Of a stretch of DNA of 64,000 nucleotides, positions 28,866-51,661 are shown one piece after another (within the stretch, counting starts at the first letter, position 1; every line of letters begins with the position of its first letter). The translations under genes were made by a program, and so were the position numbers. The DNA comes from Candidatus Gottesmanbacteria bacterium RIFCSPHIGHO2_02_FULL_39_11. GTDB lineage: Bacteria; Patescibacteriota; Microgenomatia; 2-02-FULL-39-11. The stretch spans positions 27,192-91,191 of the forward strand of contig MFJL01000019.1 in NCBI GenBank assembly GCA_001779195.1, written 5' to 3'. The notes under the pieces were generated by a model. That model was not told the origin of the DNA, did not search any database, and saw nothing but the letters and a program-made list of their open reading frames with translations.

Positions 28866-29056
28866 ACAAAATAAATAGTTATCCTCTTATAAGCTCAGAA
28901 GGGTTAAAAAAAGCTGCCGAGGATTTTAAGAAAGACCTGATCATGGGTCTTTCCAACCAAACCTCTTCCCTTCCCATGATTTTAAACCCTATTCATAGAA
29001 TTCCTGCTCATCCAGGAAGCGGGGTTGCTGTTTCAATCGGATCTTTCAGTTTTTAA
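28862..29056 (+). pseudogene. Hexokinase N-terminal gene fragment (duplicate of the 5' end of gene 30488-31708)
   Basis: The 64-aa ORF has a core DFKKDLIMGLSNQTSSLPMILNPI identical to hexokinase residues 24-47, with ~75 bp about 93% identical at the nucleotide level. It is truncated exactly where the AbiE cassette begins. Confidence 0.6.
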
Positions 29057-30412: not shown

Positions 30413-30487
30413 ATACTATTGATATTAGATAGTTTAAAGAATCGTGTCAAGGTCTTATATGCGAAGAAGAAAAAAGTATGATAAAGT

Positions 30488-32634: not shown

Positions 32635-32645
32635 ACTGGATATTT

Positions 32646-33578
32646 TTATTCTACTGCAATAACGGTTGCCGGAGTTAGCTCGTCAAAAACTTCTCTGGCT
32701 TTTATTTTACCCGTCCCGACTGTCTGCATTCCTCCCAAATACAAAGCTCTCGCATTTCCGATTTTTCCATACTCGCTTCCTGCCTGGCTTACAAAACAGT
32801 CAAGCGCTTTTTGCCGAAGGGAAGGAATATCCCCCTCCGGATCATACTCAAAATAAAGGTTGGGGTTAGGAACTCCTTTGCCCCAGGTAGCATACCGTCT
32901 CCAGGAAAGAAAACGGTCTGCTTTACCGGGAACTCTGCCCTGCCAGAAGTCATTTTCCGTTCCCCACGCAATCATTCTCTCAACTGCTTTTGCAACCGCA
33001 TGATGGTCCGGATGCCGATCCGCTTCTAAGTCCGGATGAGGCGAATACATAATGTGCGGATTAATCGTGCGGACAATGGACTCCCAAACGGATGAAAGAG
33101 TAGGATCATCTCCCCTCCAGCGGGATTCTGAGAAGCCTGAAGTACCATCCGGAAGGGTTATGATTCCGATTTTATTTACACCCGTAATTTGAGAAGAGAG
33201 GATATCTTCTGCCAGACGAACCGTTAAAAAGCTTTCATTATCGGCAAATCCCCGGCTTTCCCGTCCGGTTGAGGCATTGGTAAATAACAGCTCCAAAACA
33301 GTATCTCCCTGTTTTATATGATGGTGTGTTGCGGCAGTTGCAACCAAAGGCAGGTCGTCAGAATGAGGTGAGCAAAATAGAACGGTTTTTGATGAGCGAT
33401 TGGAATTGGGAGAAGGATTGGTAAGATACCAGACTATTTTATAGTTGCGTGCAAATTTGTTTTTTAACGACTGAATTTCCGTGGGCGTTTGTCTAACGAT
33501 TTGTGCACAATACTCAATCCATCTTTGGGAATCTTGTGGAAGTCTAATTTGATTGGGCGAAAGAGATACTTTTTTCAT
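32646..33578 (-). CDS. PIG-L/LmbE-family N-acetylglucosaminyl deacetylase
   Basis: LFCSPHSDDL and HPDHHAVAKA correspond to the LmbE PH.DD and HPDH motifs. Confidence 0.78.
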   Translation of the reverse strand: MKKVSLSPNQIRLPQDSQRWIEYCAQIVRQTPTEIQSLKNKFARNYKIVWYLTNPSPNSNRSSKTVLFCSPHSDDLPLVATAATHHHIKQGDTVLELLFTNASTGRESRGFADNESFLTVRLAEDILSSQITGVNKIGIITLPDGTSGFSESRWRGDDPTLSSVWESIVRTINPHIMYSPHPDLEADRHPDHHAVAKAVERMIAWGTENDFWQGRVPGKADRFLSWRRYATWGKGVPNPNLYFEYDPEGDIPSLRQKALDCFVSQAGSEYGKIGNARALYLGGMQTVGTGKIKAREVFDELTPATVIAVE

Positions 33579-33657
33579 ATTAGCAATATTTGACTGGAAT
33601 AAAACTTATGCTATTATACCACTGTTATCATACATTATCATACTCTGTTATTGGTAT

Positions 33658-34902
33658 ATGAACGTCACAACAGAAATTAAGCAAGATGGGCGATCTGCAA
33701 GTTTTACACAGTTTCAGCCAAATTCAGGGGCTGTTTCCGGTAATCGATTTATAGACTTCTATAACGCAGGAGGCAGACTGAAACTTTCATCTGAAGAAAA
33801 GAATAGGGCTCATCATTATTCCTGTTCAGGACAGGTAGGAGCCATAATTCCCGTTCGAAACGAACTTGGAAACGGATCTGCTTATCCGGATACACTGGAA
33901 TATTTCAAAGATGCATTGGGAGATCCCAGAAAAATACTTGTTGTAGACGCTGACTCAACAGACGGATCTTTTGAAGAAGCCGCTAACAAAGGAATACCGG
34001 TTGTAAAACAAGGAGATATAGAACGAGCATTAAAGGGTGAAAAAATAGAAAAAGATTTTGATGTTCGTTTTCCATTAAATCCCGGGAAAGGAAAAACACT
34101 CCAGCTTGGCGGCCTCTTTTACTATTATCTCCGTCAAAGATTTAATAATGGGAATTATCATGTGCCGGAACCCGTTGAGATACAGGAATCAGATAGTGAC
34201 ATTGCAACCATCTGGAAATTTGATCCCGCTACCTGGTTTTCATGGGTATCAATTCAGTCTAAAAAACCATATACAGCAGTGCTTGCTGCGCAGACAAATC
34301 GAAATAATCAGGAAGTTATGCATGCAATCACCAGTCGTATGGGACAAAATCCCGGTTTTGATCGGGATGCAGTTGTTTTTCAGGAAATGAAATGGCCGTT
34401 ATCAGGACAACGGAGAGTCACACCAAGTCTTTTATATGAGCTTCCTGGTGTTACAGGATACCCTGTTGAAACAATGCAGGATCTTGCATCCATTGCCCAT
34501 GCTCGAAAAGCAGGAGGTAGAATTGCACAAGTGGAGATTATAAATCGCTGCGGAGATGGTCAGAATTCGCCCTATAAAGAAGAGACTATGATGGGTTCGA
34601 TAAGTGCATTAGTGGATGCTGTAGTGGGTGATGTTTATTCGAAGGGATATGATTTAACAAATATGCCTCTTGAGGTGTATCGATTATTGAATCAAGAGCT
34701 TCGCAGGCGGGAATGTAATGATCAGGGAGAGCCATTTTCAGTTTCTGTAATCTCAGATAAACCCGGTCCAAATATCCTGATACCTGCACGTTTAGACCAG
34801 GTTCTTTCATCTCCAAGCTGTCTAGTAAGAGAAGGCTATGTGGACGAGAATATTCTTTTTAATATAGCTCAAGATCTTTATGGTAAAGTATGGTCAATAT
34901 GA
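33658..34902 (+). CDS. GT-A fold glycosyltransferase, glucosyl/mannosyl-3-phosphoglycerate synthase-like
   Basis: IIPVRNELGNG ... ILVVDADSTDGSFEEA shows GT2/GT81 signatures. The true start is the ATG at 33658, because the track ORF extends upstream across the divergent gene. Confidence 0.55.
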   Translation: MNVTTEIKQDGRSASFTQFQPNSGAVSGNRFIDFYNAGGRLKLSSEEKNRAHHYSCSGQVGAIIPVRNELGNGSAYPDTLEYFKDALGDPRKILVVDADSTDGSFEEAANKGIPVVKQGDIERALKGEKIEKDFDVRFPLNPGKGKTLQLGGLFYYYLRQRFNNGNYHVPEPVEIQESDSDIATIWKFDPATWFSWVSIQSKKPYTAVLAAQTNRNNQEVMHAITSRMGQNPGFDRDAVVFQEMKWPLSGQRRVTPSLLYELPGVTGYPVETMQDLASIAHARKAGGRIAQVEIINRCGDGQNSPYKEETMMGSISALVDAVVGDVYSKGYDLTNMPLEVYRLLNQELRRRECNDQGEPFSVSVISDKPGPNILIPARLDQVLSSPSCLVREGYVDENILFNIAQDLYGKVWSI

Positions 34903-36074
34903 TAATTCCTAAAGAAGATCAATTACTTATCGACCGAATAAAATCAGCAATTGGCTCTAAAAAATATTTTGTCAAAAGAAGAGCAAGCGGGCTTTTAAAA
35001 CATGATTACCTGGTTCCCGGAGGATTTTATAACGAGCAATGGGACTGGGATGGATTTTATATGGGAGTTGCTTTGGCAAGTGAAATTCCTACAGAAGCAG
35101 TATTTCTCAAAAACTGGGCATTAAATTATATGGAATTATCAGATGAAAGGGGATATTCTCCCGGTTGTGTCACTCCGAATGGACCTGAAAAGGGAACCCG
35201 GGCATTTCCTATGAAACCGTTTATCGCTCAGGGAGTGTATCTTTCAAGTAATTTTTTAAATGATTTTATCTGGATTAAGCATTACTACAAAAAACTTCGA
35301 AAAATGGTTTTGTACCGGGAGAAAAATCTCTGGAGCAAAAAATTGGATCTGGGAGTTTGGGGAAACTGGATGGAATCAGGCGCTGACAATAACCTCTCTA
35401 TATTGGGTTTCCCTAAGTCAAGCGTTGTGGCTACTGACGTAAATACATTTATTTATCGCGAATATAAAGCAATGAGTAAGATCGCTTCTGCACTTAATAA
35501 AAAGAAAGATGTTTCTTTTTTTGCAAAGCGGGCTGAAACCATCAAAAAAAATATGCAGAAGTACCTCTGGGATGATACAGATAAGACTTTTTACAATTAT
35601 AATTTGAAAACAAATGAATTTATTCGTAAACATACCTACTCAAATATGATTCCACTTTGGGAGAAGATTGCATCTCTTAAAGACGGAAAAGAAATGATTG
35701 AGAAGTATGTTGTAAATCCCAACAAGCTCTGGTCGAATCATGGGATTCGAACGCTTACTAAAGATGATCCGTTATACAACAACAAAAAGATGATCACTCC
35801 CTACTCCAACTGGCAGGGACCGGTGTGGCCACATACGAACTACATGCATATGCACTCGCTTCTAAACTACGGATTTGAAAAAGAAGCATTTCTTCTTTCG
35901 CGTAAAATAACCCAACTATGTCTGAGCGATTTTGAAAAATCAGGAGGCATGCATGAGTGCTATAGTGCAGAAACGGGCGCTCCTCTTGCGGCTGACAATT
36001 TCGTAAGCTGGAACTTGCTTGTCGGAAATATGCTGCCTGAAGCTTATTCAGGAAATAATCCCTTTTCAATTTAA
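34890..36074 (+). CDS. GH63-like (alpha/alpha)6 glycoside hydrolase (glucosylglycerate/mannosylglycerate hydrolase-like)
   Basis: YSNWQGPVWPHTNYM and GGMHECYSAETGAP are GH63/GH37-type toroid motifs. Confidence 0.55.
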   Translation: MVNMIIPKEDQLLIDRIKSAIGSKKYFVKRRASGLLKHDYLVPGGFYNEQWDWDGFYMGVALASEIPTEAVFLKNWALNYMELSDERGYSPGCVTPNGPEKGTRAFPMKPFIAQGVYLSSNFLNDFIWIKHYYKKLRKMVLYREKNLWSKKLDLGVWGNWMESGADNNLSILGFPKSSVVATDVNTFIYREYKAMSKIASALNKKKDVSFFAKRAETIKKNMQKYLWDDTDKTFYNYNLKTNEFIRKHTYSNMIPLWEKIASLKDGKEMIEKYVVNPNKLWSNHGIRTLTKDDPLYNNKKMITPYSNWQGPVWPHTNYMHMHSLLNYGFEKEAFLLSRKITQLCLSDFEKSGGMHECYSAETGAPLAADNFVSWNLLVGNMLPEAYSGNNPFSI

Positions 36075-36100
36075 TAACACGACTACTTATGTAGTAAGCC

Positions 36101-36217
36101 GTCATCCCGCACTTGTTTACCCTGTAAGGGATGCGGGATCCAGAAGTCAAAACACTGGATTCCGGGTCTCGAAACAATCCTTACGGATTTTCCGAGTAAA
36201 CAAGCCCGGAATGACAA
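36101..36217. repeat. Compound hairpin repeat element downstream of the GH63 gene
   Basis: cgtcatcccgcac...gggatgcgggatcc followed by tggattccgggtc...aagcccggaatgacaatg has the same two-hairpin architecture as 51163-51259 and 55216-55310. Confidence 0.6.
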
Positions 36218-36277
36218 TGTAACTCTTTCATCTTTGACCTCTTGCTTAGGGGAAGTTATACTGCTAAATATTATAGT

Positions 36278-37222
36278 ATGATCGATAACCAGCTTCCTAA
36301 GATTTCCGGTTTTGGCCTTACGGTTGTTGATATTCTCATGCAGATTGAGAACGGAATTCATTTATATCAAAAAAACCCTGTTGGAATGCAGATGGTTCAA
36401 TTAGGAGGGGTTGTTCCGACAGCTCTTGTAACCGCATCCCGCCTGGGACTTGACTCCCGGCTGTATACTGCTTTTGGGAGCGATAAATTTTCAGAAATAC
36501 TTTATGATATTTTTGAAAAAGAAAAAGTTAAAACAGAAGAGATTGGAAATCCAGATCTTTACCAAACCCCCCTTTCCGTTGTTGCAATTGATAAACGTAC
36601 CGGAGAAAGAACGGGGTTTAACTCTCAGGGAGATTTTCCGAAACTTGCCCCTTCCAGTATTACGGTTCCACTGGACTCCGATACATCTATTTTGTTAATT
36701 GACGGACATAATCCGTCCTGCTCTTTGCAATTTCTCAAAGAAGCTCATAAATTAGGAGCAAGAGTTCTTTTGGATCTGGGGAATCCTAAAGAGGGAATGG
36801 AAGAGATTATAAAGGAAGCGGATTTTCTAATTGTTCCCCAGGCCTATTGGAAAACGGTGTGGCCCAATATTCCGGTTAAAAAGGTTATGACCGAGCTTTT
36901 AAAAATCGGACCTAAAACAGTTATAATTACCATGGGCCCGCAGGGGTGTCTTATCGGGAATAGTCAGGAGGTTTTTCACCAGCCTGCTTTTGATATCAAT
37001 GTCATTGACACCAATGGTGCCGGAGATATTTTTTTCGGAGCATTTGTATACGGTCTGGCATCCAAATGGGATTTTAAAAAAATCACTACTTTTGCAGCAG
37101 GAGCAGCAGGATATAGCTGTCAGCGGTATGGAAAGCAGGAGAAAATTCCAAAATCAGTAGGGGACATTGAAAATTTTATAAGTACCAATAAACTCCGGAC
37201 ATTTAATTTTAACCTGCTGTGA
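36278..37222 (+). CDS. PfkB-family sugar kinase (tagatose-6-phosphate kinase/ribokinase-like)
   Basis: DTNGAGDIFFGAF is the PfkB C-terminal motif. The ATG at 36278 is used because the track ORF starts at an upstream TTG. Confidence 0.78.
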   Translation: MIDNQLPKISGFGLTVVDILMQIENGIHLYQKNPVGMQMVQLGGVVPTALVTASRLGLDSRLYTAFGSDKFSEILYDIFEKEKVKTEEIGNPDLYQTPLSVVAIDKRTGERTGFNSQGDFPKLAPSSITVPLDSDTSILLIDGHNPSCSLQFLKEAHKLGARVLLDLGNPKEGMEEIIKEADFLIVPQAYWKTVWPNIPVKKVMTELLKIGPKTVIITMGPQGCLIGNSQEVFHQPAFDINVIDTNGAGDIFFGAFVYGLASKWDFKKITTFAAGAAGYSCQRYGKQEKIPKSVGDIENFISTNKLRTFNFNLL

Positions 37223-38081
37223 TATCTGCAATCTGGGAAAAACGGCTAAAGACCGTATTTTTCAGATAGCTGTCTAAGTCGCTTAGAAGATGCTCGTTTA
37301 TTTCCTGCCAGATGGAACGCCCTGCCAAAAATCCGCTGCATCCATTATTTGAGGCAATTGAAATATGTTCTAAAAACTTTTCAAACGGTTCACCTTTACT
37401 AAGAAGTATCCAGGGGGTTTGGTTTAAAAGGCTTGTAATTTTTGTACAGGAATCAGGATCTCCCGGATATTCCAACTTGAAAATATCAGCCTCTACATTT
37501 CTTTCCAGAAAATATTTTACAGATGATATAACGAGATTTTCACCCGATATGTCAATTCCTGAAATGGGATAGGTGACAAGTTCCAGAAAAAAAGGAACGT
37601 TATTTTTTTTACATTCTGCAAGGACTTCTTTTGCGGTATTTAATTGTACGGACGCGCTTTTAGCATGGGGATTAAAAAATAAAAGTATTTTTACTCCCTT
37701 TGCCCCTTTTTCTACTAATTGGTCAACTGTGCAGTCCAAGAGCGTTGTTCTTTCGTGATCTTTTTCTTCATATCCCGTTTTTTCTATGCACAGCAGATAA
37801 GGTTTTTGAGATTGCGGGGAAATGTCTTTATTTACCATATTGTATGCGGGCAAGCCATATTCTAAGTCTACTAAAACTCCTGAAAAAAGAGGATATAAGC
37901 ACTTTATAATCTTGGATTTTATTTCAATAAGTTTGGATAGAGTTTGGGGAGTTTTTTCTTTTACATCCATTATTTTTTCAAAACTTCCCCGGTGGTCGAG
38001 GGCTAGCATTAGCAGTCGGTCGTTTTTTAAAAAAGGAGAGAGAAGAGGCGAGGTGATCATTAATTTTAATTCTAACATAGT
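37209..38081 (-). CDS. lacD: Tagatose-1,6-bisphosphate aldolase-like class I aldolase (LacD family)
   Basis: LLMLALDHRGS, LVDLEYGLPA, EKTGY, PFFLELVTYP and GFLAGRSIW align with the LacD motifs LAFDQRG, LDPEYGLPA, EKTGY, PFFLEVLTY and GVLCGRATW. The start is taken at the internal Met (MLELKLM). Confidence 0.7.
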   Translation of the reverse strand, partial: TMLELKLMITSPLLSPFLKNDRLLMLALDHRGSFEKIMDVKEKTPQTLSKLIEIKSKIIKCLYPLFSGVLVDLEYGLPAYNMVNKDISPQSQKPYLLCIEKTGYEEKDHERTTLLDCTVDQLVEKGAKGVKILLFFNPHAKSASVQLNTAKEVLAECKKNNVPFFLELVTYPISGIDISGENLVISSVKYFLERNVEADIFKLEYPGDPDSCTKITSLLNQTPWILLSKGEPFEKFLEHISIASNNGCSGFLAGRSIWQEINEHLLSDLDSYLKNTVFSRFSQIADITAG

Positions 38082-38116
38082 TGCACTATTGCGGGTGTGA
38101 CATCTACAATATAAGC

Positions 38117-39748
38117 ATGGCAGATCATGAACCAAAAGAAGGAAAAGGACTGAAAGGGCTTCTAAAAAAGATTTTACAGGGAGGTGTTCCTCCCGAGGCT
38201 CTCTATACAGAACCTCCTCCCCCGCAGGAGGCTCGTTCCAATTCTTCCCGTCATAATAACAATAATGAGAACGAAGCACCTCGCGATGTAGATCAGTTGT
38301 GGGACATGATGGCTAGTGCTCCTGCTAAAGCACGCGAATTTATTCCGGATGTGCCCTCTAAAAAAGCTCTTGAGATTCCTGAGATGAAAAGACTGGCTAT
38401 TGACCTTATCGTAAACGTTGACTCTGATTTATATTCAAATCCCCAGTGGCTTAAAAACCGGAAATCAGATATTGAAAGAATTCAAAGCGGGTATGCCTCT
38501 ACTCTGGATCTGAAAGATCAAGGCATATTAGTTGAGATGAAGAACGCAATTATCCAGAAAGAGAGAAAAATTAAAAATATAGACGAAAGATTAAAAGAAA
38601 ACAAAGACGAGATAGAAGCGGTTAAAAAGGGAGAGCCCAAAAATACAGCCGAAGAACTGAAAAAAACAATTAGAGAAGTTACCGATCTTGATGAGATAAA
38701 AAATGATGTAAAAATTAGAGATATAGTTTCTGAATTGGAAGAATATGTCAATAAAGATGACGATGGTCGACACGAGGATGATAAAAAGGTCGGGGGAGAA
38801 CATCCCCCCAAGGGCATTTATCTGGAGTATGCGTATCGAAAGCTTCAGGATCAAATAAAAGAAGAGTATAAGAAATTAAATCAGGAAAAACCGGAAATAT
38901 ATAAGCCTCAACGCCAGGAATTAGCAAAAAAAGTAGAAGCAGTTGAACGGCTTCAAAAAAAGATGGCAAAACACTGGGGAAGCATGACCGGCAAACTGGA
39001 TAATGAAAATTATCGGGAGGTAGGTGACTATGAGATGCATAAAGATACTCTAAGGCGCGATCAAAACTACCGCGACTACTATTTTTATAAAACACTTAAG
39101 CCTATTTTATTTAATGATCGCCTGGAAGCACATAGAGATTTAACCAGTCTCTCACTTATTCAGAGGATGGAGGATTTTATGGAAATTATAAGCGAGGCAA
39201 AAGATACAGGTGAAAATCCGAATGAGAACTACGGTAGGAGCTTGGTAGCTCACTATACCCGTCTGAAAAATATGATTTTTCAGTCTAACGATACGGATTA
39301 TTATGCCGCGCATCCGGCACAGGGAATTGATGAGTTTATCCAGTCCACCGCATTTTTTACAAACGGACTCATCGATTTTGCTTTTCAAAACCCGATGGTA
39401 GTTTTAGCAAAGCGCATGTATGAGTCTGTTCTTCTTGAGATCCGGGAAAACCACCAGGGATATATTCCCAGAAGATATTTGGAATGGAATGAAAGCAGTA
39501 GAGATATCCCGATTGATCGGATGGTAAGAGAGCGTATTCTCCAGGCAATTAAAAACGGACAGGTATACAACCATCCTATTGATCCTGCAACCGGACAGGA
39601 CCAGGTTGATATATATCAAAGGCTTAGGTCCAGTAAGGGAGGAGTATTAGGCGAAAAAGAAAAACTTAAGATGGATGATTTAACCGGCGGACTTGCCCCG
39701 GGAAGTCCGGGATGGAGACGGGACTTAGGAGACCTCCAAATTGCCTAA
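38117..39748 (+). CDS. Hypothetical coiled-coil-rich protein (higher GC)
   Basis: The 543-aa ORF has no TM helix or Walker motifs. It is K/E-rich and is co-oriented and adjacent to the next large gene. Confidence 0.4.
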   Translation: MADHEPKEGKGLKGLLKKILQGGVPPEALYTEPPPPQEARSNSSRHNNNNENEAPRDVDQLWDMMASAPAKAREFIPDVPSKKALEIPEMKRLAIDLIVNVDSDLYSNPQWLKNRKSDIERIQSGYASTLDLKDQGILVEMKNAIIQKERKIKNIDERLKENKDEIEAVKKGEPKNTAEELKKTIREVTDLDEIKNDVKIRDIVSELEEYVNKDDDGRHEDDKKVGGEHPPKGIYLEYAYRKLQDQIKEEYKKLNQEKPEIYKPQRQELAKKVEAVERLQKKMAKHWGSMTGKLDNENYREVGDYEMHKDTLRRDQNYRDYYFYKTLKPILFNDRLEAHRDLTSLSLIQRMEDFMEIISEAKDTGENPNENYGRSLVAHYTRLKNMIFQSNDTDYYAAHPAQGIDEFIQSTAFFTNGLIDFAFQNPMVVLAKRMYESVLLEIRENHQGYIPRRYLEWNESSRDIPIDRMVRERILQAIKNGQVYNHPIDPATGQDQVDIYQRLRSSKGGVLGEKEKLKMDDLTGGLAPGSPGWRRDLGDLQIA

Positions 39749-39778
39749 GCTCTAAAGCAGGCAAAAGCTCTGGGACTT

Positions 39779-42031
39779 GTGGATATGCGGTTTTTGGAAA
39801 TTCTGGCAAAATCCCGGGGAAGCGGATCCAACATGAAGATAAAGAATAATAACGACCTGCACTCGTTCAATATGACGGGGCTTGCTAGTGTCCCCTATGA
39901 AGCAGTCGTGCAGTATCTGGAACCGGTTATTTATAAATACAGCCGGTTTAAGATGGGAGACCGGAAATTTCACGCGTTTTTCAACTTTATGATTCAGGAG
40001 AAGCAGAGCTTTGGGTATAAGCAAATCAGAGAGATTATACAAATGCATGAGGCGGGAGACCAAAAAGGGCTGGAAAAAAAGTATGGAAAAGAGATTGCTA
40101 CCCGGCTTATTTCCCAGGACAACCCATTTCTTTTTTCAAGCATGTGGGGAACGATGACGGGATGGAGAGCTTCCATGTCCACAACCGGTTGGGATGACTG
40201 GAGAAAGGAAAGAATGTCAACGGCCAACCGTCTTACCGGGGTGGGCGATAGGTATATTCTACAGGCAGGATCAGAACATGGAGGAGGAGAACACGGAGGA
40301 CATTTTGATTTTGATGAGGATGAAAAAGATTTACATGCCCACGGATCAACGAGAAATAAGAGAGGGTATGCCTATGAAAAAGTAAAAGAATATTTTCTGT
40401 ATGAATTTGGAGGTATGAGGGATTTTGTCCAGAACAAAAAAATCGATTTAAAAAATGAAATGAAAAGTTCGGGAGATGTCAGGCTTTCTGAGATTGCAAA
40501 AAATCCTGTTGAATTTGAAAAATATTGGAGACAAATTGGAATAAAAAGACATGAAAGTGAGATTAAGGAAAAATCAAAAGAGGAAAGAAGAAAAAATTTT
40601 CATGGAAATGAAATCGAACTTATTATGCAGACAGAGCGGGCATATAAGGCTCGCGTCTGGGCACAGGCTGTCATGAGGTCTCCTCTTATTGTGGCCCGTG
40701 AGTGGGGAAAAGAGAATACGTTAGAATCCAAGGAATTCGAATACCTGGGACAGGGAGCTCTCCGGAGAAAAATTCTAAGAGAAATTCTTCATTTTGATCT
40801 TCCGGAAATGGGACCTACCCAGGAACCTACCAAACAGCAGGAAGAGCAGTTGAACCGTATTACCGTACTTGAAGGACAGCTTGCCAGTATTTCTGAAAAA
40901 TCCAGACGGGAGAACCGGGATCTTCAGGATGAGGATTTTGAGGATATTGTAGATCCCGACCAGCGGGTACTTGCTCTAAGGTATTGGCATAAAGTGCAAA
41001 AGGCAGTTCTGGGAGCTGAGGGAAACCATGCCGGACAAGCCTGGTATGACGCGCTTGGAATACAGAGTGCGGATTTACCGGATGACAATGAATTAAGAAC
41101 GTATATATTAAATCCGGAGAACGGATTTTTAAAACCGGACGGAAAAGTTGATTTATCCGATGAACGTCTGGAAGGGCTTAGGTCTCACAAAATTGATTTT
41201 AACAAAATATCCCAGAATATTAATATTCATGCAGACGGGAAAGATTATGCAGATATTTTCCATGGAGGACATCTGCCTCCCGGAGTAAATCATGATGCAA
41301 TGCTTACCGGGCGCATGATTGACAAAGACTGGAGATATTTTTTCTCTACAGAGGATATGGGATGGGAATATTTAAATATGGTTGCATTAGGAGAAAGAAA
41401 TCCGGTCCGGCGTGCCGGAGATCTGGCCTCTCATGTGCAATTTTCACAAGGACTGGATAAGCTTATTGCCCCGGCAGGAGGTGCCATAGGACCCCGCTTA
41501 AATGAAGAAGAATTTCATAAGGCACTTACAGAAATGTTTACCGCAATTGAGGGAGATGATAGAGATGTCGCCTATGATACCGTTCAGAGGATTTTCTATA
41601 ACTCCATGCTTATGTACCGGAAGATGACTCCGAGCTATTATAAAATACCTCTTATCGGGTGGGGAGCTGCAAAAATAAAAGGTTTTCTGCGGCCCATGTC
41701 TGTGATGCAGATACTGTCAGAGCCATATGGGCAGATGCACGCGGACGCGTTTGGAGCTCAGGACATACTAAAACAAATTCACATGGGAGAGGCAGCAGGG
41801 TATATTCTTCCATCTGATATAAATCCCTTAACCGGAGAAAGGGATCATTGGACAGAATGGAATGCCCATACTCTTGAGTCTCGCTTAGGCGCAGGTAAAG
41901 AGTCTCTTACGTATGATGTTGAAAATTATGTTCTGTTTCTGATGTTTATGCTTCTTCTTTGGCAATCTCTGAAGCAATCAAACGCGGATAACGCGGAAGG
42001 TGGTGGAGGTGGAGGCCCCCCTGGTCACTAG
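39779..42031 (+). CDS. Hypothetical 750-aa protein with a C-terminal TM helix and a poly-Gly tail (higher GC)
   Basis: It has a His/Gly cluster HGGGEHGGHFDFDEDEKDLHAHG, a C-terminus YVLFLMFMLLLWQSL...AEGGGGGGPPGH, and no family assignment. Confidence 0.4.
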   Translation: MDMRFLEILAKSRGSGSNMKIKNNNDLHSFNMTGLASVPYEAVVQYLEPVIYKYSRFKMGDRKFHAFFNFMIQEKQSFGYKQIREIIQMHEAGDQKGLEKKYGKEIATRLISQDNPFLFSSMWGTMTGWRASMSTTGWDDWRKERMSTANRLTGVGDRYILQAGSEHGGGEHGGHFDFDEDEKDLHAHGSTRNKRGYAYEKVKEYFLYEFGGMRDFVQNKKIDLKNEMKSSGDVRLSEIAKNPVEFEKYWRQIGIKRHESEIKEKSKEERRKNFHGNEIELIMQTERAYKARVWAQAVMRSPLIVAREWGKENTLESKEFEYLGQGALRRKILREILHFDLPEMGPTQEPTKQQEEQLNRITVLEGQLASISEKSRRENRDLQDEDFEDIVDPDQRVLALRYWHKVQKAVLGAEGNHAGQAWYDALGIQSADLPDDNELRTYILNPENGFLKPDGKVDLSDERLEGLRSHKIDFNKISQNINIHADGKDYADIFHGGHLPPGVNHDAMLTGRMIDKDWRYFFSTEDMGWEYLNMVALGERNPVRRAGDLASHVQFSQGLDKLIAPAGGAIGPRLNEEEFHKALTEMFTAIEGDDRDVAYDTVQRIFYNSMLMYRKMTPSYYKIPLIGWGAAKIKGFLRPMSVMQILSEPYGQMHADAFGAQDILKQIHMGEAAGYILPSDINPLTGERDHWTEWNAHTLESRLGAGKESLTYDVENYVLFLMFMLLLWQSLKQSNADNAEGGGGGGPPGH

Positions 42032-42033
42032 GT

Positions 42034-43467
42034 TTAATGCTTCTGTTCTCCTCCTCCAAAAAATTTCTTCAAAGGTCCATGCTGGGTAGCCTGCTGGAAA
42101 TAATACTGAGTCTGCAAAGCTGACATTCCGGTTTGAACCGTCCCGGTAACCGGAGCAAATATGGTTCCCAGAGAGAAAGGTAAGGTTGGCTGAGGGTTGA
42201 AAGCTTTCTTAGCAGCGGCAACCAGATTGGGTGCTAAAAAGACTACACCGATTGCTAAAATATTATGGAAAATTCCCCCGGCTCCGACTCCCACAAAAGG
42301 AGGGGCCCAGGTGCTGACAGACGCTTGATTCTCTGAGCCTAGGAATGCTGCAAAGATCAATATTCCGGCCGTTGCCGGAAACACGACTAAATTGGCTAAA
42401 ATATTTTGTATCCATCCTCCAAACGCGGATTTACCGGGTATCGCCTCCTGAAGAAGAATAAACGGACCGAGGATAACGGAAATTAGTAGCTGGATATAGG
42501 AGTTTAGCAGAAGAAAGAAAAGTCTGACTAATGTAAAAAGAAACCCCCCAAAAATAAAAAGAAGTATGACTCCTCCTCCAGTGGCAATAACAGGTAGTGT
42601 TGCGACATGTGTAACTATTGCCGCAATTATTCCTACAACTCCCGCGCCGGTTGTAAGCTCTATTACTCCCAGATTATTGACAACTCCGGCCCAAAATACT
42701 CCGTTAATAAGTCCTCCCAGATCAGCATTCAGGTAAGCAGATTGAAGATTGGTTACGTCTGCTCCTCCGATTCTTCCCCCTGCTCCTGTGACCAGTAAGT
42801 TTATGAGAATTGCCATTGAAAAATACATAATATCAATCAAAAATCCGGCAATTGCATAGGAGAAGGTGATAAGAAGAAGGGCAACAACTATTTTAGGAAG
42901 CGCTGCCTGAATGGTGATTACCGTTTTAGGATCTATTTTCATCCTAAAAATAATCATAAATCCGATGATAAGCATGACGATAATAATAATGGAATACGCG
43001 ATATTGCGGGTCACTTTCCAGAAGGGAAGAAAAGTGGAAAGTGCTGAAAATCCTATCCCTTGAGCATATGCAGGCTTTACAAACCCGGCGTTATTTAGGG
43101 TATCGTGAACATAAGCAATTCCTGAGGCCGCGGGATTTGAGTAAACTTCCCCAATTAAGTTTGTGACATTTCCAAGAGCAGTTAATTTAGATTCACAGTT
43201 AGTTATATCTGTGCATCCGATTTTGTTTGTTAAATTATAAATTAAGGCATCGATTGTAAAACTTCCTGCCGAAAGGCCGCTTATACACGGCTTACCATTA
43301 TTATCGGCGGCACAGGCTTCTTCTTTTTGTTTCATATCATTTAGGCTGTTAACGTTCTGTTTATAGAAAACATCCTGAGGGTTTGCTGCGTTTACAGTTG
43401 AAGTGAATGAGACAAAGAGAGTAAAAAAGATAAATACAATAAAAAATAGGGGCAGTAGACGTTGCAT
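42034..43467 (-). CDS. Polytopic membrane protein, VirB6/TrbL-like (putative T4SS inner-membrane channel component)
   Basis: A signal peptide is followed by a Cys-containing extracytoplasmic domain and then at least 6 Gly/Ala-rich TM helices. It is immediately followed by the pilin-like gene array. Confidence 0.45.
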   Translation of the reverse strand: MQRLLPLFFIVFIFFTLFVSFTSTVNAANPQDVFYKQNVNSLNDMKQKEEACAADNNGKPCISGLSAGSFTIDALIYNLTNKIGCTDITNCESKLTALGNVTNLIGEVYSNPAASGIAYVHDTLNNAGFVKPAYAQGIGFSALSTFLPFWKVTRNIAYSIIIIVMLIIGFMIIFRMKIDPKTVITIQAALPKIVVALLLITFSYAIAGFLIDIMYFSMAILINLLVTGAGGRIGGADVTNLQSAYLNADLGGLINGVFWAGVVNNLGVIELTTGAGVVGIIAAIVTHVATLPVIATGGGVILLFIFGGFLFTLVRLFFLLLNSYIQLLISVILGPFILLQEAIPGKSAFGGWIQNILANLVVFPATAGILIFAAFLGSENQASVSTWAPPFVGVGAGGIFHNILAIGVVFLAPNLVAAAKKAFNPQPTLPFSLGTIFAPVTGTVQTGMSALQTQYYFQQATQHGPLKKFFGGGEQKH

Positions 43468-43522
43468 AATAGATATCTTTATTATTCAGACTTATACAGA
43501 AGAAGTCAAGAAGATATGTCTC

Positions 43523-43939
43523 TTAAGTTTGGACAGCCGAGGGAATGTTAAAGTTGAAAATGTTCGGAACTCCCAGGAAGTTAGCAACTAAATTGAATAT
43601 TGCGTAAGCTGCAAAGACCAACAGAAGTCCCAAAAGTGCAGCCTGGATTTTATTCCGTGCCGACTCAATATTTCCTTTGTCTCCTCCTGAGGTGATCCAC
43701 TGAAATCCTCCCCAGAGAAGATAGACAAAGGCGATAAGTCCCGCTAAAAAGAGGAATAAGGAAAGAAGGCTTCCAATAAGTTTTCCTAAATCTAGGATTC
43801 TTAGTTCCGGAGGTGGAGGGATATTAATTGATCCCGAGGGGAAGGGTGTGTTGGATTGAGCGTGAACTCCTGGGACAACAATTCCGGACGTAACTGCAAT
43901 TGTTAATGTTGTGATAGCAGAGGACAAAGTTTTCTTCAT
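43523..43939 (-). CDS. T4SS pilin-like protein (VirB2/TrbC-like), paralog 1
   Basis: A signal peptide precedes a TM helix, the motif FQWITSGGDKGNIESARNKIQAALLGL and a second TM helix. Confidence 0.5.
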   Translation of the reverse strand: MKKTLSSAITTLTIAVTSGIVVPGVHAQSNTPFPSGSINIPPPPELRILDLGKLIGSLLSLFLFLAGLIAFVYLLWGGFQWITSGGDKGNIESARNKIQAALLGLLLVFAAYAIFNLVANFLGVPNIFNFNIPSAVQT

Positions 43940-44014
43940 ATATAAACAGATTAGGAGGATTTTTTTCTCTTGTCAAGAGATAAAAAAGTACTGAGGTAAA
44001 ACTTGCCCCAGTCT

Positions 44015-44341
44015 TCACTGAGTCGGGATTCTGAAAATAGTAATGGGAACCCCTGTGAAATACTCAATCAGTTTAAATATAAGGTACGCCCCAGCCATCA
44101 GAGCAATTCCGATAATCGCGTATGTCAGCGTCGATTTTGCAGATGCTACAGCTTTGGGGTCTCCTCCGGCTGTCAGGAACTTAAACCCTCCGACTAGAAA
44201 CATCACAAATAGAGCCAAAGCTGCAAGACTTACGGCAACCACCAAAATATTTGAGAATACAATCTCAAGGCATTTAATAGTCGGGACTTCTACCTCTCCA
44301 ACCTTTAACAAACATCCCGGAACATCATTCCAATTTTTCAT
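44015..44341 (-). CDS. T4SS pilin-like protein, paralog 2
   Basis: FKFLTAGGDPKAVASAKSTLTYAIIGI lies between two TM helices. Confidence 0.5.
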   Translation of the reverse strand: MKNWNDVPGCLLKVGEVEVPTIKCLEIVFSNILVVAVSLAALALFVMFLVGGFKFLTAGGDPKAVASAKSTLTYAIIGIALMAGAYLIFKLIEYFTGVPITIFRIPTQ

Positions 44342-44347
44342 AATGGT

Positions 44348-44689
44348 TTAAAAGAGTTTAGGAAGATTCAGATTTACTCCATCTCCGCTTGTAAGTCCCA
44401 GAAATTTTAAAAGGACAAGATATATTGACCACGAAGCAACCAGAATGATAAGCCCGATGATGGACTGCAAGATCCGTTCCCTGGCCTCCATCACTTTCCC
44501 TTTATCTCCTCCTGAGGTGATCCACTCCAGTCCTCCCCGAAGAAGCTGAAACAATGTCCAGATTGCTCCTAAGAATAAAATTATTCCCACCAGAGCTGAA
44601 AAAAACTTTCCAAAAGCAGCTGCGGAGCTTGCTTGGTCACAGTTAAGCCCGATTATAGCTGTATTACAAACAGGAGTTATGTTTGGCAT
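44348..44689 (-). CDS. T4SS pilin-like protein, paralog 3
   Basis: LEWITSGGDKGKVMEARERILQSIIGL lies between two TM helices. Confidence 0.5.
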   Translation of the reverse strand: MPNITPVCNTAIIGLNCDQASSAAAFGKFFSALVGIILFLGAIWTLFQLLRGGLEWITSGGDKGKVMEARERILQSIIGLIILVASWSIYLVLLKFLGLTSGDGVNLNLPKLF

Positions 44690-44693
44690 AGCA

Positions 44694-45182
44694 TCAGATT
44701 ACTAATTTTATTATAGCTTCTCCGGGATTAAAAATATTAAGCCCGAAAATATTTCCAACCAGTCCTACAAAGATATAGGAGACAACCACAATAAGAAGCC
44801 CAATCACCGCGTGAAGCATGCGCAGGCGCGCGATTTCCAAAAGCCCTTTATCAGCTCCGGCTGAGATCCACTGAAATCCTCCTATTATAAATTGTATTAA
44901 AAACCACAATCCTGCAATGATCGTTATAAATGAGATAATTCCGCTGACAAGCTGATTTAAGGAGTTTGCAACCTGAGTATTTTGATCAGTAGTATTGTTA
45001 GAATTTAAGATTCCGCAAATAATGTTTCCAATTGGGCCCATCCCTCCTCCGCATCCTATACCTTGGGTATTTGGTCCTGCTGGAGTTTGTGCAAAAGCTT
45101 TTGGAATCCCAATCAAATGAACTAAGCCGACAAAAAAAATAATAATTAAAGCAGAAATAATAATATTTAAGTATTTACTCAT
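44694..45182 (-). CDS. T4SS pilin-like protein, paralog 4
   Basis: FQWISAGADKGLLEIARLRMLHAVIGL lies between two TM helices, with an N-terminal signal peptide. Confidence 0.5.
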   Translation of the reverse strand: MSKYLNIIISALIIIFFVGLVHLIGIPKAFAQTPAGPNTQGIGCGGGMGPIGNIICGILNSNNTTDQNTQVANSLNQLVSGIISFITIIAGLWFLIQFIIGGFQWISAGADKGLLEIARLRMLHAVIGLLIVVVSYIFVGLVGNIFGLNIFNPGEAIIKLVI

Positions 45183-45619
45183 GGTGTTGGTGTAATAGTA
45201 GGATTAAGAATTGCGGTAACATTTCCATACAGAACAAGCCCGATAATTGCAGCTACCAGAAATGATGCCACAATGATAATAAGTCCTACCAGGGACTGCC
45301 AGATACGTGTCCAGGCTGATGCAACCTTTTTGCTATCCCCGGAAGCGCTCATAAAATCAAATCCGGCTATAATAAAATTTAAAAAAGTCCACAAGCCGGC
45401 AACGATAAAAATAATCCGAAGAACCAGGTTCATCAGAATGACAACTGCGGTAAGTTGTCCCGTATCACTAATTGGGGGTGTTGAGAAAAGTCCGCCGAAT
45501 CCGGTGGGATTGATTGTCCCAATCGGATCTCCCTGAGCGTAGACAGGAGTAGAAAGCGAAAGGGAGAAAGAGAGAAGAAGCGAAAAAAAAATAATTGTTA
45601 TAGATGACAAACGATTCAT
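45179..45619 (-). CDS. T4SS pilin-like protein, paralog 5
   Basis: FDFMSASGDSKKVASAWTRIWQSLVGL, with an N-terminal signal peptide ending in the AQG cleavage context. Confidence 0.5.
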   Translation of the reverse strand: MNRLSSITIIFFSLLLSFSLSLSTPVYAQGDPIGTINPTGFGGLFSTPPISDTGQLTAVVILMNLVLRIIFIVAGLWTFLNFIIAGFDFMSASGDSKKVASAWTRIWQSLVGLIIIVASFLVAAIIGLVLYGNVTAILNPTITPTP

Positions 45620-45969
45620 CCGAATACTCCTCCAAAAGGTTTTCCTGTAAGGTTATTTATTATCTGAAGTATCCAGAGGGAGGCAAACATAATAATGAGT
45701 CCTATCACCGCATATGTCAGAATCATTTTTCTGCTCTCCGATGCATGAGGGTCTCCTCCGGCATTTGAGATCACTCCAAATCCCGCAATAACTACGATAA
45801 AAAAGCACAAAATGCCGCCGGCAAGTAAAAATAGGGGAACAAAAAAAGACACAAATCCCCCGATTGAACCAAAAGCCGGATTTTTCGCGATAGGAAAAAT
45901 TTTTCCGATATCTACTCCACCTGTAGGCATTCTAAATTTAGAATAAGGGGGAACAGGGAGGTTTGTCAA
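45616..45969 (-). CDS. T4SS pilin-like protein, paralog 6
   Basis: FGVISNAGGDPHASESRKMILTYAVIGL. The start may be at the internal Met (MPTGG). Confidence 0.45.
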   Translation of the reverse strand: MTNLPVPPYSKFRMPTGGVDIGKIFPIAKNPAFGSIGGFVSFFVPLFLLAGGILCFFIVVIAGFGVISNAGGDPHASESRKMILTYAVIGLIIMFASLWILQIINNLTGKPFGGVFG

Positions 45970-45998
45970 ATAAGAGAAAGAGCCGTATACTTCTAGGT

Positions 45999-46553
45999 AT
46001 GAAACCAGGCAGATGTGAAGAAAAAGAGTTGGTAGAAAATATACTGAAAGGAGAAGAGTCCTCCCTGCGAAAGTTTTATGACACTTACTATCGTCCTATT
46101 CTTTCCTTTATCAGAAAGAGGATAAACAGTGAAAATGATGTAGAGGAAGTTTTGCAGGATACCCTCTTAGGAGCGCTTGATTCATTCCGGGATTTCTCTT
46201 TCCGCTGTTCCATATTTACTTTTTTATGCAGTATCGCAAGTCATAAAGTGATTGACTATTACAGAAGAAAGAAAATAAAAAATATCGTTTTTTCTAAAAT
46301 TCCGGATGTGGAGGAAATACTGGGAACACTTTTAGGTCCTGAAGAAATTTTAGACCATGAAATGCTTAAAAGTAAGATAAAAAAAACTCTTTTATCTCTT
46401 TCTCCCATGTATCAGAAAATTATAGACTTAAAATATATTCAAGGCTATACCGTTTCTGAGATTGCCGAAAAATTATCGTTATCATTTAAAAGCTGCGAAA
46501 GCCATCTGTTTCGTGCTCGGAAAGCATTTGTCGTGGCTTTTGAGAAAAAGTAA
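45999..46553 (+). CDS. RNA polymerase sigma-70 factor, ECF subfamily
   Basis: Region 2 (VEEVLQDTLLGALDSFRDF) and region 4 HTH (GYTVSEIAEKLSLSFKSCESHLFRARKAF) are present. The start is taken at the Met of MKPGRCEEKE to avoid overlap with the divergent pilin gene. Confidence 0.78.
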   Translation: MKPGRCEEKELVENILKGEESSLRKFYDTYYRPILSFIRKRINSENDVEEVLQDTLLGALDSFRDFSFRCSIFTFLCSIASHKVIDYYRRKKIKNIVFSKIPDVEEILGTLLGPEEILDHEMLKSKIKKTLLSLSPMYQKIIDLKYIQGYTVSEIAEKLSLSFKSCESHLFRARKAFVVAFEKK

Positions 46554-46555
46554 CT

Positions 46556-46795
46556 GTGAAAAGTAACTCAGACCTTCTTTATCTTAAATTAGTGAAAAGG
46601 ATGGAGGAGATAAGTGTTGTTTCTCCTCAAGAACTGGGGCCTTTTACCTTATTTTATAAGGTTATTGCCTCGCAGTTAAAAGTTCATCCCTGGAAGAGTG
46701 CAGGAGTTGCCGCTCTTATTGCGACTCTACTTCTGTATCTGGCTCTAGGAGGAGCTTTTATCAAAATTGCCTCACTACTCCAGTACGGATTCTGA
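46556..46795 (+). CDS. Hypothetical small membrane protein (possible anti-sigma factor)
   Basis: The 79-aa ORF immediately follows the ECF sigma gene with a 2-nt gap and has one TM helix. The function is suggested only by position. Confidence 0.3.
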   Translation: MKSNSDLLYLKLVKRMEEISVVSPQELGPFTLFYKVIASQLKVHPWKSAGVAALIATLLLYLALGGAFIKIASLLQYGF

Positions 46796-46964
46796 TTGGG
46801 AAGTGGGAAATTAGATATGTGACGTGAGATGTTGATATTCTCGAAATTGGATGTTCATGAATTTGGTTACTTGGTATCAAGAATTCAAGATTTCAAAAAT
46901 TCTAGATCAAAAGTATCTAACTTCCAACTTCAAGATATCTCATGCTAGAAGTCATCTCTAAACT

Positions 46965-47021
46965 GTCATCCTGAACTTGTTTCAGGATCTTCTGAAGATG
47001 CTGAAATAAATTCAGCATGAC
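46965..47021. repeat. Hairpin repeat element (GTCATCCTGAACTTGTTTCAGGATC ... GATGCTGAAATAAATTCAGCATGAC)
   Basis: Two consecutive stem-loops. The element is nearly identical to 47726-47806 and is the inverse of 11453-11520. Confidence 0.6.
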
Positions 47022-47085
47022 GCAGACGCGGAGGTTTCGAGACTACTTCTAACTTCTTACAGTCACTTCCCACTTCATAATTACT

Positions 47086-47715
47086 ATGTCTCTTGTGATA
47101 TCTGTATTTTTCCAATCATTCGTGTCATTTCTTAAAACCTCTTGGGGGTGTTTTAATCGTCCGTATGAAACATATAGAAAAATTTCTTCCGGATCCTTTA
47201 ATTTGCTTTCTACGTTTTTTATTTTTTTCTTTGTCTGTGTTTACTTTGCCTGGGAGAGCTTAATCCGAACTCCCTTTAGAAGTCCCTATGTATTGACTTA
47301 CAATTTTGGTTTGTCGTTTTTAGCAGCAGCTACCGGGTTTTCTCTTATCGTAGGCATTTTGTACTTTTTAGGAGAAAAGACACATGAGAAGATATCTCTT
47401 GAAAGAGTAGTAATACTCTGGTCTTATTCATTACTTCCAACGGTAATTTGGTTTTTTTCTACATCTCTTATCTATATGATTCTTCCGCCTCCAAGAACCT
47501 TATCTGTGTGGGGAAAGGGATTTAGTATCGTATTTATCTCTTTTTCCATCGCTCTTTTGGGATGGAAAATCATTCTGTATTATCTGACACTTCGGTTTGG
47601 ACTTCGAATCAGTTTGAAAAAAATTCTTACTGTTTCTTTTGTCGTTATCCCGATTATAGCGATCTACTCACTAGGCATGTATTATTTAAGAATATTTAGA
47701 ATACCGTTTATATAA
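47086..47715 (+). CDS. Hypothetical polytopic membrane protein (Yip1-like topology)
   Basis: A 209-aa ORF with five or six TM helices. Confidence 0.4.
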   Translation: MSLVISVFFQSFVSFLKTSWGCFNRPYETYRKISSGSFNLLSTFFIFFFVCVYFAWESLIRTPFRSPYVLTYNFGLSFLAAATGFSLIVGILYFLGEKTHEKISLERVVILWSYSLLPTVIWFFSTSLIYMILPPPRTLSVWGKGFSIVFISFSIALLGWKIILYYLTLRFGLRISLKKILTVSFVVIPIIAIYSLGMYYLRIFRIPFI

Positions 47716-47725
47716 AAATTGCTCT

Positions 47726-47806
47726 GTCATCCTGAACTTGTTTCAGAGCCTGTCCTGAATTCGGTTCAGGAATCTTCTGAAGATGCTGAAATAAATTCAG
47801 CATGAC
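47726..47806. repeat. Hairpin repeat element, three stem-loops
   Basis: gtcatcctgaacttgtttcagagcctgtcctgaattcggttcaggaatcttctgaagatgctgaaataaattcagcatgac. Confidence 0.6.
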
Positions 47807-47815
47807 GATCAAGCT

Positions 47816-50013: not shown

Positions 50014-50018
50014 AGTTT

Positions 50019-51161: not shown

Positions 51162-51162
51162 C

Positions 51163-51259
51163 GTCATCCCGGGCTTGACCCGGGATCCATTCCTTATGGT
51201 GTGTGGATTCCCGCCTTCCCTAAAAAGCGAACTTTTCAGGGTAAACGCGGGAATGACAA
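51163..51259. repeat. Compound hairpin repeat element downstream of the thiolase
   Basis: gtcatcccgggcttgacccgggatccat followed by tggattcccgcc...gcgggaatgacaaa. The first hairpin is identical to the one at 7732-7761. Confidence 0.6.
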
Positions 51260-51268
51260 ACAACTCTT

Positions 51269-51651: not shown

Positions 51652-51661
51652 TTTATTGTTT

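Follow-up and report, generated by a model that had tools for sequence, protein, structure and literature searches.

A single gene interrupted by one base lies convergent on a membrane-protein gene beside type IV secretion pilins in a Gottesmanbacteria genome

What is encoded by two large open reading frames (ORFs) with no recognizable domain, placed between a set of sugar genes and a module of type IV secretion system (T4SS) pilins? The question is raised by a stretch of 64,000 nucleotides from Candidatus Gottesmanbacteria bacterium RIFCSPHIGHO2_02_FULL_39_11 (contig MFJL01000019.1, positions 27,192 to 91,191; the whole stretch is referred to here as the window). An earlier note on this DNA recorded, at positions 38117..42031 of the window, ORFs of 543 and 750 amino acids on the plus strand, and both are present as recorded. 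It read them as two compositionally distinct genes converging on a VirB6-like gene and proposed that they were horizontally acquired cargo, possibly secreted substrates, structural components, or toxins of a T4SS-like apparatus. We find instead that the region is one gene of 1,304 codons, cut by a single C-to-A difference at position 39747. This gene and its product (referred to here as the big gene and the big protein) are invariably coupled in position to a convergent gene for a polytopic membrane protein (the partner), beside or near a pilin array.

The evidence for a single gene comes from the reading frame, from homologues, and from a second, independent assembly. Both ORFs lie in one frame, and the lone stop between them is the TAA at 39746-39748. 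The codons that separate this stop from the GTG taken as the start of the second ORF (39749..39778, encoding ALKQAKALGL) proved on alignment to be coding sequence conserved in homologues. The second ORF is 100% identical to GenBank A3D77_01530 from a Candidatus Gottesmanbacteria metagenome-assembled genome (MAG; RIFCSPHIGHO2_02_FULL), and its closest 8 homologues all measure 1,173 to 1,289 amino acids, matching the combined length of the two ORFs. When translated through the stop, the window aligns collinearly with these 8 proteins over ~1,300 residues, and its junction (LGDLQIA, then the stop, then ALKQAKALGLVDMRFLEIL) corresponds to LGDLQIASALKQAKALGLVDMRFLEIL in a 70%-identical homologue. 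At the DNA level, homologues carry a Ser codon (TCC or TCG) or an Ala codon (GCA or GCG) where the window has the stop.

The second assembly supplies the intact form of the gene. A cluster at 90% identity contains the two GenBank products, OGG15689.1 (543 amino acids) and OGG15690.1 (748 amino acids), together with a protein of 1,304 amino acids (P0127) from the European Nucleotide Archive (ENA) assembly ERZ4903137. Contig k141_3120886 of that assembly (locus L016) matches window positions 28117..52031 with 1 mismatch in 23,915 bp. This sole mismatch is base 39747, which is C in the ENA contig versus A in the window, such that the codon reads TCA (Ser) rather than TAA and the ORF runs uninterrupted. 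With the comparison extended to position 64000, further differences occur only at 56218, 56220, and 56224, clustered at the 3' end of the first of two tRNA-Ser genes, where the window sequence is supported by 2 other ENA assemblies. The reading as two genes therefore gives way on four grounds: the shared frame, the single TAA, the conserved junction residues, and the intact ORF in the sister assembly.

Three other explanations of the stop were tried and rejected. TAA ends 27 of the 51 window genes and is the commonest normal stop, so it has not been reassigned; together with TCA in the sister assembly, this rules out both stop-codon reassignment and programmed readthrough. A phase-variable site at 39747 is ruled out because no repeat or homopolymer is found there. 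Recurrent splitting of the gene in other genomes is likewise ruled out: the short family hits examined, 8 in number, are either short-read fragments or come from contigs of 1.7-4 kb, so splitting is neither usual for the family nor one of its traits.

Between a genuine population allele and an error in the consensus or assembly of the GenBank MAG, the balance is close, and we place the allele a little below an even chance. Such an allele might be a recent nonsense mutation, an incipient pseudogene, or a gene whose two fragments still assemble. In its favor, the contig bearing TCA also departs from the window at the three positions near the tRNA-Ser gene, where the two other ENA assemblies side with the window; because of these differences, that contig may represent a slightly different genotype. 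Both halves of the gene are, moreover, otherwise intact, as a very recent event would leave them. Against it, the 543- and 748-amino-acid products are recorded only from the GenBank MAG, and the gene is uninterrupted in the one other assembly that covers the site. Inspection by eye shows no Shine-Dalgarno sequence ahead of either the GTG or the ATG restart codon, and the site lies outside any repeat tract, which makes phase variation unlikely. The position of the stop within the protein also speaks against a real allele: in the model of a homologue described below (P0006), the equivalent residue sits in the middle of a long helix (residues 450-472) with a predicted local distance difference test score (pLDDT) of ~96, so the break falls within a high-confidence core helix and not in a linker or at a domain boundary. 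If the stop is real, the product of the TAA allele, as judged from this model, would be truncated inside the core helix and probably nonfunctional.

In at least one further ENA assembly of this strain (L021), a contig breaks off within the big gene, at about window position 41010, and a fragment protein of 345 amino acids (P0128) starts nearby. This contig end may point to strain microdiversity or to a branch in the assembly graph. In practical terms, GenBank A3D77_01525 and A3D77_01530 should be annotated as one gene with a single-base stop; more generally, an adjacent pair of unknown ORFs in a MAG may be a single gene.

To gather members of the big-protein family, 1.84 billion cluster representatives (50% identity) were searched exhaustively with a profile. 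Of these, 122 matched at E <= 1e-3, including 55 at E <= 1e-30, and almost all measure 1,000 to 1,350 amino acids; every full-length homologue is a single protein. The exhaustive search was needed, as a word-indexed homologue search with the profile gave no new members. A scan of GTDB genomes with narrow patterns gave 2 loci. All members with a named source come from Gottesmanbacteria, 'Candidatus Microgenomates', or 'Patescibacteria group'. One further locus, L009 (CAZJBV010000005.1), is titled 'uncultured Gammaproteobacteria bacterium', but its big gene, partner, and small-gene array are arranged as in Gottesmanbacteria, so L009 is probably a mislabelled or contaminated bin. The earlier note had described the ORFs as lacking any recognizable domain, and this description holds, as Pfam, NCBIfam, PHROGs, and PADLOC gave no domain match for the big protein. 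No Pfam domain is shared among 38 diverse family members. The proposal of a toxin fell away, since no toxin or defense profile matched the protein. At the level of sequence comparison, the big protein belongs to an uncharacterized, lineage-restricted family.

Within the family, the first third of the protein is variable, K/E-rich, and helical, and the K/E-rich character noted earlier for the first ORF is borne out (K, 9.6%; E, 9.8%). The core of ~900 residues is collinear across the family and carries invariant motifs in two places: one around HDxD..P..F.N.Y..DP.V..A.R.YE and the other around TED..W..LD...LG.R...RR.GD ... S.AQ, where D, G, R, D, and S residues hardly vary. The big protein has no signal peptide. 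Toward its C-terminus, a hydrophobic helix is followed by R/K and then by a Glu-rich tail, an arrangement common to full-length close homologues and to the distant members inspected; in the subclade of the window, the Glu-rich tail carries a Gly run ending in His. The His/Gly cluster and the GGGGGGPPGH tail described previously were both recovered, as was the helix taken for a single C-terminal transmembrane segment, although the latter is only moderately hydrophobic. Its Kyte-Doolittle 19-residue mean ranges from 1.4 to 2.2, with homologues reaching 1.5-2.2, and three members, the window protein included, fall below 1.4.

Structure prediction was informative for a homologue of full length. 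AlphaFold modeling of P0006 (1,173 amino acids; 35-38% identical to the window protein) with an alignment of 75 sequences gave a pLDDT of 89 and a predicted template modeling score (pTM) of 0.86, and the model consists largely of alpha-helices, with a few small beta elements. The second ORF alone, modeled with 9 sequences, reached a pLDDT of 57 and was unusable. When the P0006 model was compared by Foldseek with 350,542 PDB chains and with BFVD, nothing matched at E <= 1e-3; TM-scores went no higher than 0.11, for generic helical-repeat proteins, and a profile search of PDB sequences matched only designed helical repeats. Remote-homology and structural searches thus yielded no relative in PDB or BFVD, and the fold of the big protein, as predicted, is without a match among solved structures.

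Thirteen loci were compared (the window, L001, L002, L003, L006, L007, L008, L009, L010, L011, L013, L014, and L017; the layout of L011 recurs in L012). In all 13, the big gene is convergent, 3' end to 3' end, on a homologue of the partner gene, the two encode separate polypeptides, and the gap between them is -7 to +41 nucleotides. The pairing extends to the most distant homologue tested, P0100, which matches the profile at E 5e-6 and whose downstream gene matches the partner alignment with an hhalign probability of 99.9% (E 2e-32). The pair is intact at P0065 and P0074 too, even though other genes surround it there and the pilin genes lie 3-6 kb off; in L013, L014, and L017, genes both upstream and downstream have changed and the pilins have moved by a few kb, and the pair is kept. 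The link to a T4SS-like module of pilins and a membrane protein, which the earlier note had inferred, was in this way upheld by co-occurrence down to homologues at E ~5e-6.

The small genes beyond the partner are T4SS pilins, as had been supposed. Both window pilins tested match PF18895 (T4SS_pilin), precomputed assignments to PF18895 exist for 4 of the 6 identical genes in L016 (2 of them weak), and a GGD/GAD..K..A motif is common to all six. PF18895 pilins or arrays of pilin-sized genes occur in every locus with a long enough contig, either adjacent to the pair or within a few kb. In L011, genes for VirB4, a TraC-like protein, and PrgI stand three genes upstream of the big gene. The corresponding cluster of the window (2124..7674) is a distal part of this apparatus. 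Between the window and L011, identity is 74% for VirB4, 55% for TrsD, 44% for PrgI, 33% for the partner, and 26% for the big protein. The big protein itself has no homology to a known T4SS subunit family according to Pfam, NCBIfam, mating-pair formation (MPF) profiles, PDB sequences, and Foldseek against PDB.

The partner is predicted to consist of a signal peptide, an extracytoplasmic domain of ~125 residues, and ~7 hydrophobic segments. It is conserved across loci at ~500 amino acids and has at least 507 homologues, with no Pfam domain in any of the 120 best listed out of 507 hits. The earlier note called the gene VirB6-like; the convergence that it described is real, and the label lacks support from sequence. 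In topology and position, the partner is of the VirB6 type, being polytopic with at least five helices and encoded beside VirB2 pilins. No TrbL/VirB6 or PrgH profile matched it (Pfam at E <= 1, 12 members), and a profile search of PDB returned no match to the solved VirB6, TrwI. In the absence of either match, 'VirB6-like' here denotes topology and position only. The scarcity of VirB6 reported for Microgenomatia fits the lack of a profile match for the partner, presumably through divergence.

In the subclade of the window, the products of the two convergent genes each carry a C-terminal tail with a Gly run and a terminal His. The tails are GGGGGGPPGH in the big protein (41996..42028) and GGGEQKH in the partner (42034..42060), and in L001 they read ..GGGGGGHGGHH and ..GGGHKGEHH; paired His tails are also found in L006 and L007, and the internal His/Gly loop occurs in the same subclade. 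A metal-binding or interaction feature common to the two proteins could underlie the paired tails. The possibility that the Gly-codon runs at the abutting 3' ends form a hairpin or bidirectional terminator was considered and set aside, as folding z-scores were -1.06 and +0.84 and nothing resembling a terminator was detected there.

We give an even chance to the reading that the big protein is a lineage-specific, cytoplasm-facing, membrane-anchored accessory subunit of the Patescibacteria T4SS/pilus module that works with the partner. Its N-terminal basic amphipathic helix, its large alpha-helical body with invariant acidic and basic motifs, and its one C-terminal hydrophobic helix with an acidic tail would make up a protein that is tail-anchored in the membrane and faces the cytoplasm. 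There it may dock on the polytopic partner, which would occupy the VirB6 position, and the two might help form a platform for pilin assembly or translocation. By analogy, the big protein would correspond to the hydrophilic domain of an 'extended VirB6', here provided as a separate polypeptide.

Several observations weigh against this subunit role. No homology to any T4SS component or other family was found in Pfam, NCBIfam, PHROGs, PADLOC, PDB, or BFVD, and the functional assignment therefore derives from gene neighborhood and topology. The big gene and the partner gene are convergent and hence not cotranscribed, and part of their adjacency could be inherited synteny, because every locus belongs to a single lineage in which gene order is broadly conserved. 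The modest hydrophobicity of the C-terminal helix is a further point, and the R/K and acidic tail that follow it make an ambiguous charge pattern and misfit a simple tail anchor with the N-terminus inside and the C-terminus outside by the positive-inside rule. Finally, the big protein diverges faster than VirB4, TrsD, and PrgI, which would also suit a surface-exposed or secreted protein.

A more far-reaching version of the subunit role is that the big protein and the partner would constitute a new, Gottesmanbacteria/Microgenomatia-specific core of the T4SS pilus-assembly and translocation platform, standing in for VirB6, VirB8, or coupling functions that escape profile searches in this class. 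We regard this version as possible and propose it tentatively, with a probability noticeably short of even.

Of the roles offered by the earlier note, secreted substrate and structural component both remain reasonable, although we consider the former unlikely. On the substrate reading, the big protein is a T4SS substrate or effector, or else a protein of the cell or pilus surface, rather than a machine subunit; it would be synthesized in the cytoplasm without a signal peptide, recognized through its conserved C-terminal segment, and exported toward a host cell. The lack of a signal peptide and the Glu-rich extreme C-terminus of the inspected members agree with this, as do the variable N-terminal third, a rate of divergence that equals that of the pilins and the partner and far exceeds that of VirB4, and a separate transcription unit beside apparatus genes. 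The family is also poor in Cys (mean of 0.12% versus 0.81% in other window genes), and the 1,304 residues of the big protein include none, against an expectation of ~10.5 based on the other window genes. Cys depletion was nevertheless rejected as evidence of export. It does not discriminate, because VirB4, which is cytoplasmic (0/638), PrgI (0/434), and the 521-amino-acid ORF next to them (0/521) are likewise free of Cys. Against a substrate, the big gene strictly occurs once per genome and keeps its 1:1 synteny with the partner over deep divergence (13/13 loci), and the ~900 core residues remain collinear with invariant motifs, whereas effectors usually vary in number, position, and architecture. 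The C-terminal resemblance to known substrates is only an analogy.

We consider it equally doubtful that the function has nothing to do with the T4SS. The big protein would then be a cell-envelope, cytoskeletal, or scaffold protein or an unrecognized enzyme, and its adjacency to the pilins would be part of the inherited gene order of Gottesmanbacteria. All named members do fall within one lineage in which the wider neighborhood is conserved as well, the convergent orientation excludes an operon, no homology to T4SS parts is detectable, and the nearly invariant D/E/R/S residues (HDxD, TED, RRxGD, and SxAQ) resemble an active or binding site. Inherited order alone is harder to reconcile with the survival of the pair in L013, L014, and L017, where the other surroundings changed, with the narrow spacing of the 3' ends in all 13 loci, and with the similar Gly-run and His tails on both proteins in the subclade of the window.

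As regards the origin of the gene, composition and neighborhood were both considered. Relative to 52 window genes (mean GC content of 0.388, standard deviation [sd] of 0.033; mean GC content at third codon positions [GC3] of 0.324, sd of 0.049), the first ORF has a GC of 0.408 (z = +0.6) and a GC3 of 0.368 (z = +0.9), and the second has a GC of 0.435 (z = +1.4) and a GC3 of 0.398 (z = +1.5). The visibly higher GC content attributed to the two ORFs is therefore marginal, with all values within 1.5 sd and no outlier signal, and the genes for the partner and the pilins are raised about equally. Upstream of the big gene, PfkB and DeoC/DUF2090 genes are kept in relatives that are 25-70% identical in the big protein; downstream, the partner, the pilins, the extracytoplasmic function (ECF) sigma factor, Yip1, HMG-CoA reductase, and the remaining mevalonate pathway are kept (as seen in L002, L003, L006, L010, and L012). 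The earlier note would have taken average composition, combined with homologues in unrelated contexts, as a refutation; the composition is near average, but homologues lie in the same and not in unrelated contexts, so this test of its own applies only by half. A tblastn search with the intact protein gave no homologues among 72,556 records of plasmids and 50,697 of phages, PADLOC and PHROGs gave no match indicative of a defense-system or phage origin, and ORF and domain scans turned up no integrase gene, tRNA gene, or other mobile-element hallmark beside the big gene. The big gene is chromosomal, syntenic with relatives, and vertically inherited. That two separate cargo genes, possibly toxins, were acquired horizontally between the sugar genes and the pilin module is accordingly so improbable that we reject it: a GC content slightly above the window mean and the lack of recognizable domains are outweighed by a region that is one gene of near-average composition, by conserved synteny, and by the absence of plasmid, phage, PADLOC, PHROGs, toxin, and adjacent mobile-element matches.

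The coordinates of the big gene, its sequence features, and the associated genes are collected in Table 1.

Table 1. Features of the big gene and of the T4SS-related genes in the window
Feature	Positions	Strand	Remarks
First ORF	38117..39748 (start also listed at 38081)	+	543 amino acids; from ORF finder
Second ORF	39779..42031 (GTG start at 39779)	+	750 amino acids; from ORF finder
N-terminal 543 codons of the single gene	38117..39745	+	GenBank A3D77_01525
In-frame TAA splitting the gene	39746..39748	+	Base 39747 is A
C-terminal 760 codons and stop	39749..42031	+	GenBank A3D77_01530, starting at ATG 39785
Conserved N-terminal 'PExG + basic amphipathic helix'	38147..38185	+	Found in many family members
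Variable K/E-rich helical region	Between N-terminal helix and YRDYYFY	+	
Conserved block YRDYYFY	From 39068	+	
Conserved block DTDYYAAHP	From 39284	+	
Conserved block NPFxFSSMWGTMTGWR	From 40121	+	
His/Gly/acidic-rich insertion GSEHGGGEHGGHFDFDEDEKDLHAHGS	40268..40348	+	Subclade of the window only; predicted disordered, pLDDT <50
Conserved block ERAYKARVW..SPLIVARE	From 40634	+	
Conserved block RENRDL	From 40904	+	
Conserved block WRYFFSTEDMGWEYLN..LGERNPVRRAGDL	41318..41425	+	
C-terminal hydrophobic helix YVLFLMFMLLLWQSL	41927..41971	+	
Acidic poly-Gly tail EGGGGGGPPGH	41996..42028	+	Ends in His
			
Partner, polytopic membrane protein	42034..43467	-	477 amino acids; 2-nucleotide gap from 3' end of big gene
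Six small VirB2-like pilin genes	43523..45969	-	138, 108, 113, 162, 146, and 117 amino acids
PrgI-family protein (VirB3-like)	2124..3428	+	434 amino acids
TrsD-like protein	3497..4186	+	229 amino acids
VirB4-like ATPase	4183..6099	+	638 amino acids
Unknown ORF	6109..7674	+	521 amino acids

Several further observations concern the surroundings. The genes for PrgI, the TrsD-like protein, VirB4, and the 521-amino-acid ORF lie beside dnaN and dnaA (2124..10519), ~30 kb from the pilin module. At the far end of the pilin array, a gene for an ECF sigma factor (45963..46553, plus strand) diverges from the first pilin gene (45616..45969, minus strand) and overlaps it by a few bases. The sigma-factor gene has the same place in L002, L010, and L016 and lies close downstream in L003 and L012, with Yip1 next in each; its product is a candidate for regulating the pilin operon. 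Elsewhere, two toxin-antitoxin-like pairs stand among housekeeping genes: an AbiEii nucleotidyltransferase toxin with an ORF of 199 amino acids upstream (29046..30412, minus strand), and an NTP_transf_2 and HepT-like pair (~56285..56840, from the gene calls of L019) between two tRNA-Ser genes. These two tRNA-Ser-like genes (56132..56219 and 56840..56927) are 700 bp apart, and both score above the Rfam tRNA threshold. One has the anticodon GCT and the other ACT (A34), the latter being unusual for a bacterial tRNA.

T4SSs with VirB2-like pilin arrays, related to the MPF-FATA type, have been described in Patescibacteria, a group that also goes by the name candidate phyla radiation (CPR) (Quinonero-Coronel et al. 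2025, PMC12102498; Wang et al. 2023, PMC10633639). In Microgenomatia, VirB6 is scarce, VirB8 is almost undetected, and T4SS genes are origin-proximal, next to dnaA/dnaN (PMC12102498); in the one species where it could be tested, the Patescibacteria T4SS is essential for epibiotic growth (PMC10633639). The window conforms to this picture, with PrgI, TrsD-like, and VirB4 genes beside dnaA and dnaN, six divergent PF18895 pilins elsewhere on the chromosome, and the big gene and partner at the pilin array. It departs from the systems of PMC12102498 in that the big protein and the partner are absent from the component catalogue given there, and we found no description of either as a T4SS component in PMC12102498, in PMC10633639, or through literature searches.

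The tail-anchored secretion-system subunits, such as DotU/TssL of type IVB secretion systems (T4BSS) and type VI secretion systems (T6SS), offer one point of comparison. Like them, the big protein lacks a signal peptide, is predicted to be cytoplasmic in its bulk, and has a single hydrophobic helix within ~35 residues of the C-terminus. Unlike them, it is ~6 times larger, shares no homology with them, and has a helix of moderate hydrophobicity whose membrane insertion and orientation are predictions. A second comparison is with T4SS substrates that carry C-terminal translocation signals, e.g., the Glu-rich 'E-block' of Dot/Icm effectors. The conserved Glu-rich C-terminus of the big protein (..TAKSEEEE..) and the lack of a Sec signal recall such substrates, a likeness of composition only; in contrast to them, the Glu-rich stretch follows a hydrophobic helix, the gene is single-copy and strictly syntenic, and the window has no coupling-protein gene nearby.

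The nearest functional analogy is the 'extended VirB6' group, which includes TcpH of pCW3, TraG of the F plasmid, and RvhB6 of Rickettsia. In proteins of this class, a polytopic VirB6 domain and a large hydrophilic one occur together on one polypeptide (PMC12857230). The locus described here likewise joins a polytopic module of at least five helices to a very large hydrophilic module at a site of pilin and T4SS genes. It differs in that the two modules are separate polypeptides from convergent genes, and in that searches gave the partner no TrbL/VirB6 similarity and the hydrophilic protein no similarity at all. In all, T4SSs and pilin arrays were already known in Patescibacteria, and the big protein, with its unmatched predicted fold, is a good candidate for a lineage-specific part of these systems. 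Together with the partner, it provides two concrete candidates for the missing parts of the Microgenomatia T4SS, and the confident model of one of them allows co-folding, pull-down, and cryo-electron tomography work to be designed directly.

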